From: Squalus acanthias
Taxonomy: Eukaryota
Length of the DNA stretch: 64,000 nt
Assembly: GCA_030390025.1 (NCBI GenBank)
Contig: CM059441.1
Location: forward strand, 52,080,001 to 52,144,000
Direction: 5' to 3'
Shown: one piece after another, positions 30,153-46,950 of the stretch
Numbering within the stretch: position 1 is the stretch's first letter
Layout: every line of letters begins with the position of its first letter
Notes under the pieces: model-generated
What the model saw: the letters and a program-made list of their open reading frames with translations, nothing else
Databases searched by the model: none
What the model was told of the DNA's origin: nothing
Program-made: the position numbers and the translations under genes

Positions 30153-31169
30153 CAATGAAGTGTAATTTTGAAAAGCTCAGTTACCCACTGAATCAACTTG
30201 TCGAGCAATGTGTGAGCTTCCAGTCTGACCCAGTTGATTTATGGATTGATAAATCAGACACCAGCCGAGAGGCAGGAAAGCTCAGTGTGTGCCTGCAAAT
30301 GCAATGCAATGAAATGCAATGCACTCTTGTATCATCACAGCAAACCCTTGTGCTTTGTACAAATGTTTCAACATCTTGTGAATCTGATCCTTTGCAACGT
30401 GGTGACCCAGTTAATTGAAGCTGTGGTCCCACTCCTTCAGAAAATCGCTTGGATGTATTTAGGGTAATGCGATGCCGGGCTTGAATGTCTTTCAGGCCAG
30501 TTGTAAAGTACGTAAGGACAGTCAAGGGTCGTGTGTGTGCTCTGCCAGAGGGCAACACTTCACTGCCAGGAGTATAAACTTGAGAAAATTCCCCTCATTT
30601 GGAAAAACTGGGAACACACAGCAGGTCCATCAGCCTATGAAACAGAAAGAAAGGTTTGGGGGTAAAAATTCAGTTGGTTGCGCCTCCCGTTAGCGCCTTA
30701 AGAGGGCGCTAATGGGGCGCAAAGCCGCTAGCGCCCGGGCGCAGCGATGTTTGCGCCGCTCGGGAACTTAACTAGACATTGTGCGGCGGCGCTAAACCTT
30801 ACCGCCGCGACCACCTGCGCGCGCAGATTGTGACGTCATTCCATGGTGCAACGCCCTTGTGGCGCCCCGGAGCGGAAATTGAGTGGCGCCCCCTGCCTTA
30901 CCGCCTGGCGCATCCAACGACCGGAAGACTGGAACGCTATCAATCGCTGTGGGGCTGGGGGGGGCGCTATTTAAAGGGGGCCTCTTCCTGTCTTTTTCTG
31001 TGGTTGACATTTTTGCACCACTCGTTCTGAGAGAGAGAGAGAGATTCGGAGAGAGAGAAAGAGAGACTTCTGCATTGAGTCAACGCTTTGTGAGGTAGTT
31101 TTGCCTACTGATCCTAACTTCGCTGGTACTTTGGTTGCTGTCCTTCATAACTTTGCTTGCAAAGAGACT

Positions 31170-32330
31170 ATGGGGGCTGCACTGATTGGGGGCGTCGTCC
31201 TGCTCCAGCTGAATCGGAGGACACAGAGACGCAGAGAGAGAGTGGCAATGATGGCCAGACGGAGGAGGGCCAACAGGCGTATGTACAGGAGAGCTTACCC
31301 TCCCAGGGTATATCGTGAACAGCTCTCCTACATTCATATGTCTGAGGAGCTGTGTTTGCGAAGGCTGCGATTCAGCAAGGAGGTGGTCACTGAGCTCTGC
31401 CACCTGCTGCAGCCAGATCTGCAGCCTCAACTGAGGTCCAGGATGTCTCTGTCGGTGGCAGTGAAGGTCACAGTGGCTCTCAACTTCTATGCTACTGGCT
31501 CATTTCAAGCTGCTGCTGGGGACCTCGCCAATATCTCTCAGTTCGCGGTGCATTGCTGCATCCGGCAGGTCACAAATGCCCTCTTTAAAAGGAGACGAGA
31601 GTTCATCTCTTTCCCCATGACCCCAGACAAGCAGCGTGACCGCGCTCTGGGCTTTGCGAGGATAGCGGGCTTCCCCATGGTGCAGGGCGCCATTGACTGC
31701 ACGCATGTGGCTTTGCGTGCTCCACATGAGAATGCCGAGGAATTCCGGAACAGAAAGGGGTTCCATTCCTTGAATGTTCAGTTGGTCTGTGACCACAGAC
31801 AGCTGATACTCGCTGTCAATGCCCACTATCCTGGCAGCTGCCACGATGCTTTCATCCTGCGCCAGACTACTGTGGCAGAACTTTTCGAGGCACCGCATCA
31901 GCCAGTTGGTTGGCTTCTCGGGGACAAGGGGTATCCATTGAGCACCTGGCTGATGACACCACTCCGTACGCCCAACACCCCTGCTGAGCTGCGGTACAAC
32001 GAGAGCCATCAAGCTACCAGGAACATCATTGAGCGCACAATCGGTGTGCTGAAGCAACGGTTCCGCTGTCTCGACCATTCTAGAGGAGCCCTGCAGTACT
32101 CGCCTGAGCGAGTATCCAACTTCGTAGTTGTGTGCTGCATGTTGCATAACATGGCAATCGTCAGGACCCAGCCAATGCCATCAGACCTTGGAGCACCACC
32201 AGAGGAGGAGGAGGAAGAGGAGGAAGAGGACGAGGAGGATGATCATCAGCAGCACCAAGGCGGGAGGGCGGCCCACAATGGTGAAACTGCAAGGGCCGTC
32301 CGTCAACGGCTGATAGCAAGCCGCTTCTAG
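31170..32330 (+). CDS. Harbinger DDE transposase (HARBI1/DDE_Tnp_4 family), intact ORF of 386 aa from the first ATG
   Basis: GAIDCTHV, NRKGFHSLNVQLVCD, PGSCHDAFIL, LLGDKGYPL, RNIIERTIGVLKQRFRCL; all three acidic catalytic positions present. Confidence 0.95.
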   Translation: MGAALIGGVVLLQLNRRTQRRRERVAMMARRRRANRRMYRRAYPPRVYREQLSYIHMSEELCLRRLRFSKEVVTELCHLLQPDLQPQLRSRMSLSVAVKVTVALNFYATGSFQAAAGDLANISQFAVHCCIRQVTNALFKRRREFISFPMTPDKQRDRALGFARIAGFPMVQGAIDCTHVALRAPHENAEEFRNRKGFHSLNVQLVCDHRQLILAVNAHYPGSCHDAFILRQTTVAELFEAPHQPVGWLLGDKGYPLSTWLMTPLRTPNTPAELRYNESHQATRNIIERTIGVLKQRFRCLDHSRGALQYSPERVSNFVVVCCMLHNMAIVRTQPMPSDLGAPPEEEEEEEEEDEEDDHQQHQGGRAAHNGETARAVRQRLIASRF

Positions 32331-32642: not shown

Positions 32643-34732
32643 CTACTTTTTGCCCTTCGAGGGTGATCTCTTTCCCTTGCGCACTTCCCCCCTTCTAACC
32701 CTACTGCTCCTCCGTAATGGGACCTCAGTGGCTGCAGCAAGGCTGGTGGAAGGCTGCTGATCGTCAGACCCTGACACTGCAGATGCCCCTGAAGGACGGC
32801 CTCGACCAGTTCTGGGCCTGGAGGGCCCGGCTGCAGACTGCACCAACTCTGCATGGGCGGCAGCAGTCTGTCCTACAGGCGGTGGCAAGTGCAGTGGAGA
32901 AGTGACAGTGTTGGCAGCAGGAATGCTGTCATCGTGAGAGAGGACAGCAACTCCCTGCTCGCCCGACACACTGGCACTCCCACGGGGCAGCACTTCAGCA
33001 TCCGGAACAATCTGCTGGAGCACAGATTGCTGGCCTGCTGCGGCGCGGTGAGAGCCCCGGGGACATGTGAACGAACCATCGAGGTTGGCAGCAGTCAGTG
33101 CTCACGTGGCCTCAATCTGAGTCTGCATGAGAGCAGTCAGAGATGGGATCACGGCAGTCAGTGACTGAATTGCAGCACTAAGCTTTAGTGTGGCATCCGC
33201 CTGTGCTACAGCGAAGTGCTCCACACTCCTTGCCAGTGACTCAATGCATTCGGGCACCCTTCCCACTGCACCCATGAGCTCAGTGTGCATGCCCACCGCC
33301 TGGGTGTTCATTTCTGCGATCAGCCGCTCCTCCTCTGCGTCCATTGCAGTAGGAGTCGCTGGCATACCCTCCCTCTGGGGAGAAGGCCCCCGTTCTTCCC
33401 TACCCCCATGCCGTTGCTGCAGCCCGCTGGGTCCTGGAGCTTCACCCTCATCAGACCCTTCCCCCCTGCTCCCCTCCAGGGAAGGCGTGTTCCCAGTGTC
33501 GGCATGGGCTTCCTCGAGAGAGGGTGGCACTGATGCTCTGGCTTCCTCTTCCTCCTCGGCTGCAGCTTCACTCCCACTGGCAGCTTCAGGGCCCGTCTCC
33601 TCAGCTGGTGAATCACCATCTGAAAGCAGGGAGGTACAAGAGTGGCTTTAGCGTGAGGACAGGGTGGCAGTAAGGGAGGAATAAGTGCAGCGAGTTAACA
33701 AGTTGGATTGAAAGTGTCAAAGGCTGGTGTTGTGAGGGACAAGTGGAAGGACAGAGGACAAAAAGGTGATGACCTTACCATTGCTGTCCAGAACGGGGTC
33801 GGCGTCTCCAGTGGCGACGGGACCGATCACCCGGCTTGCCACAATCCTGTGGACGCGCTCCTCCAGATCGCTGAGGGGTTGCAGCTGAGGCCGCCCTCCA
33901 CCTGTCCGTTGCTGCTGTCTCCTATTATGCGCCAGCTTGGCCTGCAAGAAAAAGGACAGCATCTGAGTAAATATACAGCCATGGTCTTGCCTGATGTGCC
34001 TCCCATAGGTGAATAGCCCTTACTGTATACAGCCATGGTCTTGCCTGATGTGCCTCCCATAGGTGAATAGCCCTTACTGTATACAGCCATGGTCTTGCCT
34101 GATGTGCCTCCCATAGGTGAATATCCCTTACTGTATACAGCCATGGTCTTGCCTGATGTGCCTCCCATAGGTGAATAGCCCTTACTGTATGCAGCCATGG
34201 TCTTGCCTGATGTGCCTCCCATAGGTGAATAGCCCTTACTGTATACAGCCATGGTCTTGCCTGATGTGCCTCCCATAGGTGAATAGCCCTTACTGTATGC
34301 AGCCATGGTCTTGCCTGATGTGCCTCCCATAGGTGAATAGCCCTTACTGTATGCAAAGTGTGGAATGTGTGTGTGTGTTTCATGAAAGGGCCATAGGTGT
34401 TGGATGAGTGTTGTGCATTGGGGTTTTAAGACCCTCTGGCCATAGAGTGAGGTTGAGATGGAGGGATGGAGAGGTATTGAAAAAAAGCCACTCACCCTGA
34501 CGACCTGAGTGAGGTCGTTGAACTTTTTGCGGCATTGAACATGGGTCCTGGGCACCATGCTCCTGGAGGAGACGCTCTGAGCCACCTCCCTCCACACTCT
34601 TCTGTACTCGCGTGGCAAAGGCCTCCTGCCACTCTCAGGGAAGAGCATACATCTTCTGCGCTCCACCGCGCCAACCAGAGCATCCAAGGCCTGCTCGGTG
34701 AAGCGCTGAGCTCGTTCTCTCACCCTCTCCAT
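32643..34732 (-). pseudogene. Harbinger Myb/SANT-like DNA-binding gene, 3 exons (34732-34496, 33941-33779, 33619-32643), with one in-frame TGA at 33104-33102
   Basis: Exon 1 RAQRFTEQALDALV..WREVAQSVS..RTHVQCRKKFNDL; exon 2 RTGGG; GT-AG junctions in compatible phases (0, 1); the frame continues past the TGA to a basic C-terminus. Confidence 0.85.
33972..34353. repeat. Minisatellite, 7 x 54 bp, in intron 1 of the Harbinger Myb-like gene
   Basis: Unit TACAGCCATGGTCTTGCCTGATGTGCCTCCCATAGGTGAATAGCCCTTACTGTA; copies near-identical. Confidence 0.95.
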
Positions 34733-35544
34733 CCTTGGCAGCAAAATGGATTCACAGGTCTCTCCAGGCCGAGATTCAAGGCTGCAATGAGCAGGGTGTG
34801 GCTGGGGAGCAAGTTGGCCCCCCCCCGCTTTAAGAACTGGCCGGCGCCAGTGTGTCTGTGTTCCCTCGCTAACTGGCAGCACCTGCGCTGCGCTCGCGCG
34901 CTGAGTTAGCGCCTCACTGCTCGGCCTTTGCGCCTTAAGACAGGTGTGCAGCGCCTGATTTAGCGCTCCACTCACCTCCCGGGGCGGTAAAAGTGAAGTT
35001 TCCAGTCAGTGGCGATAATTAGCGCCAGGCGCTAATATTTGCGTCCAGACGATATTTGCGCCCCAAACGGGGCGCGACCTAATTTTTCCCCCTTGGGGTT
35101 TAACCCTTCATCAGGACCTGCAAAGTTCACCAGTGGAAGTTTCAGGTCGAGTTCATTCCCTCCCCAAAGCAGCAAGCTCACTTCTGTTCTCACTGAGTAA
35201 ATGAATAACTTAAGCAACACAGAATAACCAAATTAAAATGACTTTGTTCTTTCTACCATTCCCTTGTAATAGATCTCTTGTCAGACGTGCTGTATCGGAG
35301 TCGAGGGTGTGAGCAGGAACCTGCTCCCAGGTCTTTGGCCATTCCTCTGGGATGGCAGGGGCTGTTAATACACTGGTTTGTTTCATTTCCCCTCTCTCTC
35401 CCTGCAGAAAAGTGACTATTCACCAGCTGCTGAATCCAGTGAGTGGAGCCAAGATTGGGAACTTGCCTCACGGGGAAGTGCATCCTGCGAGCTTCGTGGC
35501 ACCAAATTACTGTGTTTTGATTAAATATTTAGGAGGGGAATCAC

Positions 35545-36662: not shown

Positions 36663-38933
36663 TCAAAGTGAAGCGCTTCGGGACATTTGAGAGATGTGAT
36701 AAGGCACTATGTAAATGATATTTCTCCTTTTAGCAGAGTCCCCCACACAGCAATGAGATGCATGGCCAGATTCTTTGTATTTTCGTGGATTATTTGAAGA
36801 AGAAATGTTTGGAATGGGGAGATGAACCGGCTGCGCAGCGATGCTGCTTGTCGTAAGAATGAGCCTTACGCGTGGGTCAGGTTTAATGATGCCATTGCCC
36901 ACACAATAGCCAAGGATGTTGATGGTTGGTTGTGATTCAATGGATTTAGCCGCATTTAATGTCAAATTACGGTGCTGGAGTGCATCCCAAAATCGTTGGA
37001 GATTGGCGTCATGTTCCCGCTGATTGCGACCTGCGACAGTAATATTGTCCAGATAAGGAAACGTATCCTTCAAGTCTTCCTGTTTGACCAGGTCATCCAT
37101 TGCTCGCTGGAAGACAGCCACTCCATTAGTGACCCCAAAGGGGAGGCGACGAAATTGATACAGCCGTCCATTGGCTTCAAAGGCCGTATACTGCTTGTCT
37201 GAGACCTTCAAGGGTACCTGATGATAGGCACTTTTCAGATCATATGTTGAGAACACTGTGTACTCAGCCAGTTTATTAACCATATCATCGATGCGCGGCA
37301 ATGGGTATGCGTCCAAGTCCGTATATTGATTGATGGTCTGTGAATAGTCAATGCACAGCCGTTTCTTGTGAGGTTGTAGAGGGTTCTTAACAATAACGAC
37401 CTGGGCGCACCATGGCGACGAACAAGGCTCGATGATATCCTCTGCTAAAAGCCGAGAAATCTCAGCCGCAATAAAAGACTGGTCTTCCTGACTGAAACGT
37501 CGTGACTTTGTTATAATCGGTTTGCATCGAGGAGGGATACTGGTAAACAGTGAGGGTTCATCCAGTGAAGCTGCTGACAATGCACAGAACGGTAATCGAG
37601 GTAGTATATTAGAAATAGTGAGTTCAGGTTTGGATCCGCCGAACTCAATGGTGAGCTTCTTATGCTGCTTTTGAAAATCCAGCCCTAAGATAAGATCACT
37701 ACATAAATCCTTGAGCACCGAAAGCCGGGTGGAGGGATACCTGTGACCATTAAGTGTTATTTCAACCATACAAAAGCCAGAAATTCTGGTATTAAGTGAT
37801 GACTGAGCCATCGCAATTGCCTGGTCCGATGGGAAAACATGTAGCTTTAACTCTGCAACAATCTGTTCCCTAATGAACCTATCAGTGCTACCTGAGTCAA
37901 TTAAGGCATCTAAAGTATGTCCATTAATTGATGCTTTTGTAGCTGCATGGAATAGGTTCTGAGGACAAGCAGCTGTAATTGGTGTCGTTGCACAAAGAGT
38001 GGCTGAAACTCTAGGTGTGTTTCTTCGAGAGGAAACCCGAGAGGAAGCACAATAGATTTTAGCCAGAACATCTTGATAGGCCCTTACCGGGGCAGTTCGG
38101 TAGGACTTAGCTTGATAAGCCCTCGTAGAGGCTCTTGATAGGCAAACCTTTGCAAAATGACCCTTTTTGTTGCAATGACTGCAAAACGCATTGCGAGCAG
38201 GGCAGAATTTCCGAGGGTGAAACTCATCACCACAAAAGAAGCATTTCTTAGATTGCCAAGAGGCTGCCACAGTGGGGTCATCATCCTCTTCATCAGTGAA
38301 GTCATCAGATTGATCGTCAGGGATAAAGTCCTCCCTAATAGAGTTCACCTGTGGCCTCTTAAATTGCCTGACTGTAGTTAAGGCAGTAGACCGAGGTCTG
38401 GGCACTGTATAAAGGTCTGCATTTCTTTTTGCCAGATCTAGAGAGCAAGCCATGTCATAAGCTCTCTGAAGCTCAAGTGTCTTACTTTCCAGTAGACGCT
38501 GGCGTATAAATGGGGAGGCAAGCCCGCAGATGAAAGCATCATGGATCATTTCTTCACGGTACAGCTCAGCTGAGACCGCCTGAAAGTTACAGTCCATACT
38601 AAGTCTGCGAAGCTCTTGGAGGAATTTATCAATGGATTCCTCCGGCCCTTGTTGGGCTGTAGCTAGTAGATGTCTGGCATAGACCTCATTCGGTGTCTTA
38701 GTATATAGTCTCTTAAGCGTCTGAATTGCCTCCTCGTAACTGCCCCATTCCTCCACATACTGAAATACATTCGGGGTGACACAGTTGATGAGTATCCGCA
38801 ACTTTGAGTCATCATCAGCCTTGCAATATTCAAGAAAATTGTCAAACGTGCGATACCAGTGTTTCCACACCTTACCGGCTGCTGGGGTGTTTGGGTCCAA
38901 GTCAAGACGCGATGGTTTAAGGATGTTTTCCAT
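36663..38933 (-). CDS. Gag-protease-RT polyprotein: 687 element-derived codons, then read-through into the LTR stub and host DNA; RNase H and integrase deleted
   Basis: Two CCHC knuckles CFFCGDEFHPRKFCPARNAFCSHCNKKGHFAKVC, protease LIDSGST, RT RLCIDY..YPLPRI..DLKSAYHQ..LPFGV..YLDN. Confidence 0.9.
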   Translation of the reverse strand: MENILKPSRLDLDPNTPAAGKVWKHWYRTFDNFLEYCKADDDSKLRILINCVTPNVFQYVEEWGSYEEAIQTLKRLYTKTPNEVYARHLLATAQQGPEESIDKFLQELRRLSMDCNFQAVSAELYREEMIHDAFICGLASPFIRQRLLESKTLELQRAYDMACSLDLAKRNADLYTVPRPRSTALTTVRQFKRPQVNSIREDFIPDDQSDDFTDEEDDDPTVAASWQSKKCFFCGDEFHPRKFCPARNAFCSHCNKKGHFAKVCLSRASTRAYQAKSYRTAPVRAYQDVLAKIYCASSRVSSRRNTPRVSATLCATTPITAACPQNLFHAATKASINGHTLDALIDSGSTDRFIREQIVAELKLHVFPSDQAIAMAQSSLNTRISGFCMVEITLNGHRYPSTRLSVLKDLCSDLILGLDFQKQHKKLTIEFGGSKPELTISNILPRLPFCALSAASLDEPSLFTSIPPRCKPIITKSRRFSQEDQSFIAAEISRLLAEDIIEPCSSPWCAQVVIVKNPLQPHKKRLCIDYSQTINQYTDLDAYPLPRIDDMVNKLAEYTVFSTYDLKSAYHQVPLKVSDKQYTAFEANGRLYQFRRLPFGVTNGVAVFQRAMDDLVKQEDLKDTFPYLDNITVAGRNQREHDANLQRFWDALQHRNLTLNAAKSIESQPTINILGYCVGNGIIKPDPRVRLILTTSSIAAQPVHLPIPNISSSNNPRKYKESGHASHCCVGDSAKRRNIIYIVPYHISQMSRSASL

Positions 38934-39206
38934 GATGGGTGATTCCCTGGATCCTTAGTTCCGAGTTCGTCCAAAAAGTTTGAGTGCGAAGTTTTCCAAA
39001 GTTGATTAAATTGTCGTAAGAATGAGCCTTACGCGTGGTGAACTTAAAGTAAGCTTTAATCAACTAAAAAAGGTGCTACATACAAAAGAGGTCTTACTCT
39101 ATGCCTCTCCAGGATCCAACTGATCAGTCCAGTATTTATCCTGGACTAATCACAGGAAGTGATGCAATAAAGTTCGAGTCACAGGAAGCTGTATTGTGTT
39201 ACCACA
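36849..39206 (-). mobile_element. Gypsy (Mag-like) LTR retrotransposon, internally deleted; 5-bp TSD CTGCT
   Basis: 5' LTR 39206-39012 (TG..CA, 195 bp); only the last 27 bp of the 3' LTR remain (36849-36875, identical); TSD at 36844-36848 and 39207-39211. Confidence 0.93.
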
Positions 39207-39916
39207 CTGCTCATGGCCGAACAGTTGTGGCTGGGCTCACATGTGAAGTGTGACCCCGATTGTAAAGTGTCAGAAGATTGCTGGCTTCAGGAAACGAGGG
39301 GCGGGGGTGAGAGGCAGTTGGCAGTGACAGGTTTGCTTTGTACTGGTTTTCCAACACAGGGAATTTGTAGAATTTTCCCTTTTTTTTAAAATCTCCCCGT
39401 TCCAAACACTGACACCACAGCTGTCTGTTGCTGGACATACTTCTCCGATGTCGTGCTGGACTGAAGCGATCAGTGAATGTCTTAAGCTCAGCTGTTCCTT
39501 GCTGAAGAAAGGCTCCAGCGTGGCGTGTCCATGTCTCGGTGATATTCCACATGTGCAATAACACGGTCAGGTCTACAGGCCCCAGTTGGCCGCAGGTCCC
39601 ATACTCCACACAGCCCCAGTTCACAGCTCATTTCACAGGATGAAAGCAGTGCAAATGGGGTCAGCTGTACAGAAGCCAGCAGTTAACATTTAAAAAAAAG
39701 TTAAACTCTGTCGGCAGATTAATCAGGGTCCAGAGCCAAGCACCTTGACTGGCTGGTGAACGGGTGGCGATGGCTTGGACCCTTCCATTTGATCCATTGG
39801 GATCTGCTGTAAGTGTAACAAACTGCCGTACCAGTTGGGAGCAATGCTTGTAGCTGAGGTTAAATTCAATAGTTCTTCTGTGTACAGAATGTTTTAGTTA
39901 TAAAGCTGGAGTTCAG

Positions 39917-46464: not shown

Positions 46465-46950
46465 GGGTATGGTAGTATAGTGGTAATGTTACTGGACTAA
46501 TAATCCAGAGGCCTGGACTAATGATCTGTGGGACATGAGTTCAAATCCCACCACAGCAGCTGGGGAATTTAAATTCAGTTAATTAAATAAATCTCGAATA
46601 AAAAGCTAGTATCAGTAATGGTGACCATGAAACTATCGGATTGTCGTAAAAACCCATCTGGTTCACTAATGTCCTTCAGGGAAGGAAATCTGCTGTCCTT
46701 ACCCGGTCTGGCCTACATGTGACTCCAGACCCACAGCAATGTGGTTGACTCTGAAATGGCCCAGCAGGCCACTCAGTTGTATCAAATCGCTGCGACAAAG
46801 TCAGCGCTGTGGGAGTAACTTCACCACACGGACTGCAGCGGTTCAAGAAGGCGGCTCACACCACCACCTTCTCAAGGGCAATTAGGGATGGGCAATAAAT
46901 GCCGGCCTTGCTAGTGATGCCCACATCCCAGGAACAAATTAAAAAAAAAC
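46465..46950 (+). mobile_element. SINE family B, full length, inserted in a degenerate L2 (about 45975-47070)
   Basis: tRNA-like head (GAGTTCAAATCCC), conserved core, 3' tail matching the LINE family B 3' end, A tail. Confidence 0.88.

Follow-up and report, generated by a model that had tools for sequence, protein, structure and literature searches.

The element in the window and its family in the genome

The window, by which we mean the whole 64,000-nt stretch of Squalus acanthias DNA that was analysed, carries on its minus strand a copy, shortened by an internal deletion, of a young Ty3/Gypsy family whose full-length members measure ~4.44 kb (Table 1). In this copy the deletion junction connects positions 1-2331 of a full-length copy, the last of them inside RT, to the 27-28 nt with which the 3' LTR ends, and the AGCAG duplication is intact on either side. 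Public contigs have loose ends at 39206 and 39012, confirming the LTR ends; neither a transcript start nor a splice junction is visible in them. The LTR region was without a match in Rfam. Elsewhere in the window, a DDE_Tnp_4 transposase frame (31008-32330, plus strand) faces a Myb/SANT-like frame that has a tandem repeat of 54 bp (33827-35005, minus strand), a layout that we take to be that of a PIF/Harbinger-type DNA transposon.

Table 1. Features of the Ty3/Gypsy copy, in window coordinates
Feature	Position	Strand	Basis or remark
Target site duplication, 5' side, AGCAG	39207..39211	-	same 5-mer at 36844-36848
5' LTR, 195 bp, TG...CA	39012..39206	-	LTR pairs in 15/16 fetched family copies
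LTR 11-mer AGTTGATTAAA, predicted self-primer, contains ATTAAA (39060-39055)	39055..39065	-	sequence and covariation; role predicted
Predicted cut between 39055 and 39054	inside LTR, 3' of the 11-mer	-	putative cut site
Short second stem, from the first base past the 11-mer	39042..39054	-	predicted fold; weakly supported over 25 elements
U5 hairpin CGTAAG/CTTACG, family-specific	39015..39033	-	sequence and predicted fold
Spacer A, separating the LTR end from the primer site	39011	-	single base in 25 aligned elements, A in 23/25
Primer-binding position TTTAATCAACT, the complement of the LTR 11-mer, without TGG	39000..39010	-	sequence
gag-protease-RT frame, 2 zinc knuckles, RT motif YLDN, ends after RT by internal deletion	36876..38933	-	
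3' LTR remnant, last 27 nt	36849..36875	-	match to full-length copy
Target site duplication, 3' side, AGCAG	36844..36848	-	sequence

The S. acanthias genome itself (3.7 Gb) holds 1,791 candidate members of the family, of which the best 40 are 99-100% identical. Two LTRs were found in 15 of 16 fetched copies, most of them ~4.44 kb long and bounded by 5-bp target duplications, and the LTR pairs of most fetched copies differ by 0-2 bases; the family is young. Unbroken copies encode a single gag-PR-RT-RNaseH-IN protein of ~1,320 aa, a polypurine tract is present, and the paired LTRs, target site duplication and gene order are those of a Ty3/Gypsy element; a domain scan of a full-length copy returned RNase H and integrase and no chromodomain. 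The same 11-mer follows the LTR in all 14 copies with a cleanly readable junction, and in locus L046 as well. Searching the genome for the junction pattern gave 2,797 matches, compared with 255 for a control pattern, and exposed a second family with an identical 11-mer. A separate locus (L281-L282, G000:C1:561000-580000) contains four family copies in tandem, spaced 4,247 bp apart, with neighbours sharing one LTR.

A primer-binding position complementary to the LTR

The preliminary description had read the end of the 5' LTR as being followed by one A and then by TTTAATCAACT (39010-39000), without a TGG, and had found within the LTR its exact complement AGTTGATTAAA (39065-39055), including an ATTAAA; both readings are borne out, as is the polarity that it gave, with the LTR 11-mer's 3' end directed into U5. 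The arms of this 11-bp stem enclose a loop of 44 nt. An 11-nt LTR complement to the post-LTR sequence, at offsets of 0-5, arose by chance in 6 of 20,000 shuffled LTRs. In the predicted fold of the LTR region of the window both the 11-mer pairing and the CGTAAG/CTTACG hairpin are present, and the folding energy of the region is overall ordinary (z -0.16). The hairpin, which the preliminary description had also listed, does lie at 39033-39015, but it is particular to this family, and the feature that recurs in relatives is instead a short stem right after the 11-mer.

Distribution of the clade and conservation of the stem

A search with the Gag region returned 107 relatives, with crustaceans, Trichinella, Paragonimus, Lepidoptera and chelicerates among the named hosts, and further hosts, namely Trichuris, Periplaneta, Myxine and Narcine, came from a search with the RT region. 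Identity over the RT region falls into two ranges, with full-coverage clade members at 49-62% and nearly all other sequences at 35% or less. IMG/VR contained no relatives, and the ESM Atlas generic Gag clusters only. NZ_CP087956.1, a 5.3-kb entry deposited under the label of a Wolbachia plasmid, encodes a Gypsy-type RT-RNase H and is probably a host retrotransposon.

We looked for the stem in metagenome contigs and in the S. acanthias genome, taking the longest inverted repeat within 200 nt upstream of gag. Of 80 metagenome loci returned by the scan, 34 had a match to the Gag N-terminus and 33 of these enough upstream DNA, which, with one copy for each of the two families of the S. acanthias genome, made 35 testable loci. 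A stem of 10-18 bp at the LTR/gag junction, in the same register, was found in 29 of them, compared with shuffle means of 6.2-7.4, and was absent from the 200 nt upstream of gag in the other six (L052, L061, L075, L100, L121 and L126). The partner segment of L052 sits in its 3' LTR; L061 and L075 appear to be 5'-truncated and L100 is degenerate, and the stem is missing from L121 and L126 without visible reason. An apparent TGG site in L052 was discarded after inspection by eye, this contig having the usual primer site and its matching segment in the 3' LTR. Seven of the metagenome contigs (L047, L051, L054, L074, L088, L091 and L126) read in the order 3' end, LTR, primer site and gag, a layout of collapsed assemblies, tandems or one-LTR circles.

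Covariation of the LTR 11-mer and the primer site

The 29 stem-positive loci, minus five near-duplicates (L055, L065, L066, L069 and L093) and plus L100, gave an alignment of 25 elements, and in every one of these the LTR end, one spacer base and the primer site follow one another in a fixed register. Watson-Crick pairs make up 270 of the 275 cells of the 11-bp core and G-U pairs none of them, with 19 different primer-site 11-mers among the 25 elements. The primer site pairs at all 11 positions with its own LTR in 21 of 25 elements, compared with 23 of 600 combinations with foreign LTRs. The covariation score is 0.492, as against 0.148 for shuffled partners, and none of 500 shuffles reaches it, kinship among the elements being a factor that inflates shuffle tests of this kind; controls with a slid register score at most 0.123. 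The complementarity that the preliminary description had seen in one element holds across divergent families. L067 and L070, whose LTRs are near-identical, are separated by one double-sided change in the stem. Three of the near-duplicates that were left out have one imperfect pair each, a G-U in L055. Beyond 11 bp, positions 12-16 are paired in 16-22 of the 25 elements and positions 17-18 in 6, and pairing is at chance level past ~16 bp. Within the family itself, one stem position shows 15 variants, 7 on the LTR side and 8 on the primer side, all of them uncompensated, which is expected of post-insertion mutations and lends no support to the pairing.

The second stem, directly after the 11-mer, averages 4.2 bp, compared with 3.0 in shuffles, over the same 25 elements, and 19 of its 106 pairs are G-U. 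The lack of G-U in the core, set against its presence in the second stem, is suggestive of a primer site that is produced by copying the LTR segment and not solely selected for pairing with it. Upstream of the 11-mer, a conserved splice acceptor was considered but finds no support, with a mean score of 6.0 vs 5.3 in shuffled sequence, none in 7 of 24 elements and no conserved donor. On the evidence of sequence comparison, the self-complementary primer site is a real, conserved and lineage-wide feature.

Proteins and phylogenetic position

Gag of the clade contains two CCHC-type arrays (zinc knuckles), and the Pfam domain lists of all 107 relatives are without a chromodomain, SH3_Tf2-1 or a Ty3-type capsid family. 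In RT, an Asn replaces the second Asp of the YxDD active site in 51 of 73 clade members (alignment A1). Identity over RT-RNase H is at most 35% to chromodomain-bearing proteins and 26-32% to the Mag-like elements of the Squalus genome.

Trees were built from subsets of the collected sequences (92, 63, 39 and 40 rows), in which the groups, assembled without true Tf1, sushi, Mag or Cigr-1 sequences, took their labels from the Pfam domains, the names in databases and the primer sites of their members. Endogenous retrovirus-like loci of the Squalus genome (L231-L235 and L239), some with env-like frames, served as the outgroup. No chromovirus reference was found in the Squalus genome, where 6 of 16 chromodomain matches were checked and none had an RT. 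With both RT-RNase H and RT-to-integrase data, the clade is recovered with full support (100/100) on a long stem, outside the core chromodomain-bearing clade, which the RT-to-integrase data recover at 100/100. A sister position to the Mag-like elements has a support of 98 in one tree and of 99/97 in another, in which the bootstrap was not fully settled, and of 80, hence unresolved, under a mixture model. Nesting with the fungal Tf2-like pair was rejected (p-AU 0.010), while a sister position to the chromovirus clade gave a p-AU of 0.155, and AU tests on a quick tree of RT only rejected no topology.

As judged from these trees, the clade is not a member of Tf1/sushi and is probably sister to the Mag-like elements. 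The preliminary description had called the element Mag-like from its Gag; the two CCHC arrays agree with this, the RT does so only as far as a probable sister relationship to the Mag-like group, and the clade lacks a tRNA site. It had further raised the possibility of an independent tRNA-free lineage and named a position within known Tf1/sushi chromoviruses as the opposing case; the clade stands on its own outside the chromodomain-bearing clade, and an independent origin of the proposed self-priming is no more than likely, because the sister position to chromoviruses was not rejected.

A model of self-priming and its alternatives

Self-priming is established in yeast Tf1, where the pairing is 11 nt long and the RNase H of the element makes the primer cut. 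We consider it fairly probable that the elements described here prime reverse transcription in a Tf1-like manner, with the 11-mer RNA of their own LTR in a folded-back 5' end and with no tRNA. Under this model, transcription would start at the 11-mer or a few bases upstream, giving a primer of 11-16 nt, and the 5' end of the RNA would fold back to pair with the primer site. Cleavage after ...AAA, for which the RNase H of the element is the likely enzyme, would then free a 3' end directed into U5, from which RT would extend through the spacer, U5 and R (44 nt in the Squalus family and 21-70 nt in relatives) before jumping to the 3' repeat. During plus-strand synthesis, initiated at the polypurine tract, the primer would be copied too, so that every cycle would rewrite the primer site with LTR sequence, which would explain the strict Watson-Crick covariation. 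Some families may in addition profit from masking of the poly(A) signal of the 5' LTR.

Copies with switched strands fit such a cycle. A genome search for U3 and the 11-mer followed by T found five places, three of which, small rearranged insertions that change strand within the stem, continue into a reversed U5 (L278, L279 and L280) and on the other strand read LTR end, spacer, primer site and reversed U3, with zero leader bases past the site. In L279 the two LTRs are equally shortened and the 5-bp duplication is perfect; in L280, which is palindromic and has two U3 ends, the duplication matches at 4 of 5 positions. In L118 the loop is inverted and followed by a jump from the primer site into RT. 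Such junctions fit a plus-strand DNA that ended in a primer copy and re-primed on the 11-mer, but they could also result from DNA folding back on itself at inverted repeats of any kind. We also searched for 3' LTRs retaining a primer copy and obtained three matches, all of them 5' ends.

Among the alternatives, the one that survives best also has the primer made of the element's own RNA, in another geometry: the 11-mer copy in the 3' LTR, a second packaged RNA, or a long primer from a far-upstream start. A transcript start exactly at the 11-mer leaves the pairing past 11 bp unexplained, since most relatives pair at positions 12-16, and this pairing, which reaches ~16 bp, extends into the would-be U3. 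In L279, moreover, the end of the primer site was extended along U3 that is missing from its own shortened LTR, so that intermolecular or 3'-copy pairing is possible. A start close to the 11-mer is nevertheless suggested by its first bases, which are an initiator-like pyrimidine-AG in most elements (the initiator consensus being of this form), by the G at stem pair 10 in 25 of 25, and by the drop of pairing to chance past 16 bp. We regard these other geometries as unlikely.

The stem might otherwise serve merely to mask the poly(A) signal of the 5' LTR, or to aid strand transfer, with priming left to something else. The 11-mer contains AATAAA or ATTAAA in 16 of the 25 elements, and it is at the 5' end alone that a partner strand is available, as masking would have it. 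The remaining 9 elements have no hexamer in the 11-mer, and in 2 of these it is unpaired in the loop, so that masking is not a general reason for the stem; a structural stem, furthermore, should allow G-U pairs and need not start one base past the LTR end, and no alternative primer site is visible. These points make a purely structural role improbable.

Turning to host tRNAs, on which the preliminary description had found no matching site, none of the tRNA 3' ends fits the primer site, where TGG is missing; in the three Mag-like elements of the Squalus genome, all three primer sites have TGG, and the LTR complement is only 4-6 nt. A wobble-tolerant genome search gave 71 matches, compared with 2 in a control, pointing to the D-loops of tRNA-Thr and tRNA-Ile; 30 of the 71 were scanned and yielded 7 tRNA genes, the tRNA sequence upstream of the T-loop being covered. 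In the tRNA-Thr genes L205, L208, L224 and L227, the D-loop is one position off the LTR 11-mer and its next bases, a likeness that is either chance or a trace of the origin of the primer. The window has a 93-nt tRNA-Ile(AAT)-like gene call at 46466-46558 on the plus strand. A host tRNA fragment ending in the D-loop, of tRNA-Thr in particular, is highly improbable as the primer even though this loop could pair 11/11 with the site of the Squalus family using one G-U, because the C expected at site position 6 of a copied Thr loop occurs in 0 copies (the three variants there are A, A and G), the loop, taken from the Squalus host and not from the relatives' own tRNAs, mismatches 16 of the 25 aligned sites while these sites track their own LTRs, and the dihydrouridines of D-loops pair poorly.

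Taking the self-priming model together with the trees, we put at a little better than even the chance that a metazoan-wide Gypsy clade, present in nematodes, flukes, arthropods, hagfish and cartilaginous fish and sister to the tRNA-primed Mag elements, left tRNA priming independently of Tf1/sushi for an 11-16 nt self-primer that is rewritten in each cycle and often masks the 5' poly(A) signal.

Significance

Self-priming is regarded as a hallmark of chromoviruses of the Tf1/sushi group, and cases have been predicted in plants. If our reading is true, finding this signature in a large animal clade outside the chromoviruses would mean that RT and RNase H can change from tRNA primers to self-primers repeatedly, a point relevant to the question of which was first in LTR elements, hairpin or tRNA priming. 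Self-primed elements would evade silencing through tRNA fragments directed against the primer site, and annotation tools that require a tRNA site would miss or mislabel them. As the family is very young and has thousands of copies, its priming chemistry is testable on short RNAs.

Comparison with known systems

In the literature, self-priming is tied to Tf1/sushi, plant Tcn1 and TAR copia elements, with an unexplained variant in Skipper (PMC6317226, PMC3601003, PMC6238403, PMC2577118, PMC10085805, PMC4600332, PMC5006619, PMC8556966, PMC11042837, PMC3286476); in literature searches that did not extend to subscription journals, Repbase and GyDB, we found no report of it in a non-chromovirus animal Gypsy clade. 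Several non-Mag, non-chromovirus clades of marine invertebrates have been named, i.e. Cigr-1, MolGy1, MolGy2, MolAn and PolGy, in PMC6238403 and PMC8556966, the main texts of which are without the word PBS. The animal clade described here, which we set beside them by description only, may be one of these and hence already named.

Mag elements (the A, B and C clades and SURL) are described as having small LTRs, one gag-pol frame, a 5-bp duplication and two CCHC-type arrays (PMC2577118, PMC3286476), all of which our clade shares. They have primer sites for tRNA-Ser, -Leu or -Arg (PMC3286476), whereas our clade has no such site and stands on a long stem of its own. For plant Tcn1 (gypsy) and TAR (copia), self-priming was predicted from an LTR complement of at least 10 bp starting 0-5 bp past the 5' LTR (PMC6317226). 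The same prediction applies to our clade, but Tcn1 is a relative of Tf1/sushi and TAR belongs to Ty1/copia, and the animal clade is neither.

The closest parallel in layout is with Tf1 and Tf2 of Schizosaccharomyces pombe, Tj1 of S. japonicus and Tf1/sushi elements, in which, as PMC10085805 and PMC4600332 describe, a segment of the LTR, directed to copy U5, pairs with the primer site just past the 5' LTR, and there is no tRNA site; Tf1 cDNA bears a DNA copy of the primer at its 3' end, and shared-LTR tandem copies are known for Tf1/Tf2 (PMC11042837). Our clade likewise has a primer site complementary to its own LTR just past the 5' LTR, in the same orientation and without a tRNA site, and shared-LTR tandems occur in the Squalus family too. 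It differs from Tf1/sushi in having no chromodomain, SH3_Tf2-1 or Ty3-type capsid, in an RT that is mostly Y-x-D-N and in its two zinc knuckles. A three-duplex 'pretzel' of the Tf1 type is not clearly visible, the comparison of the 25 aligned elements past the 11-mer having returned a weak second stem. The primer of our clade often overlaps a poly(A) hexamer and is followed by a very short R-U5.
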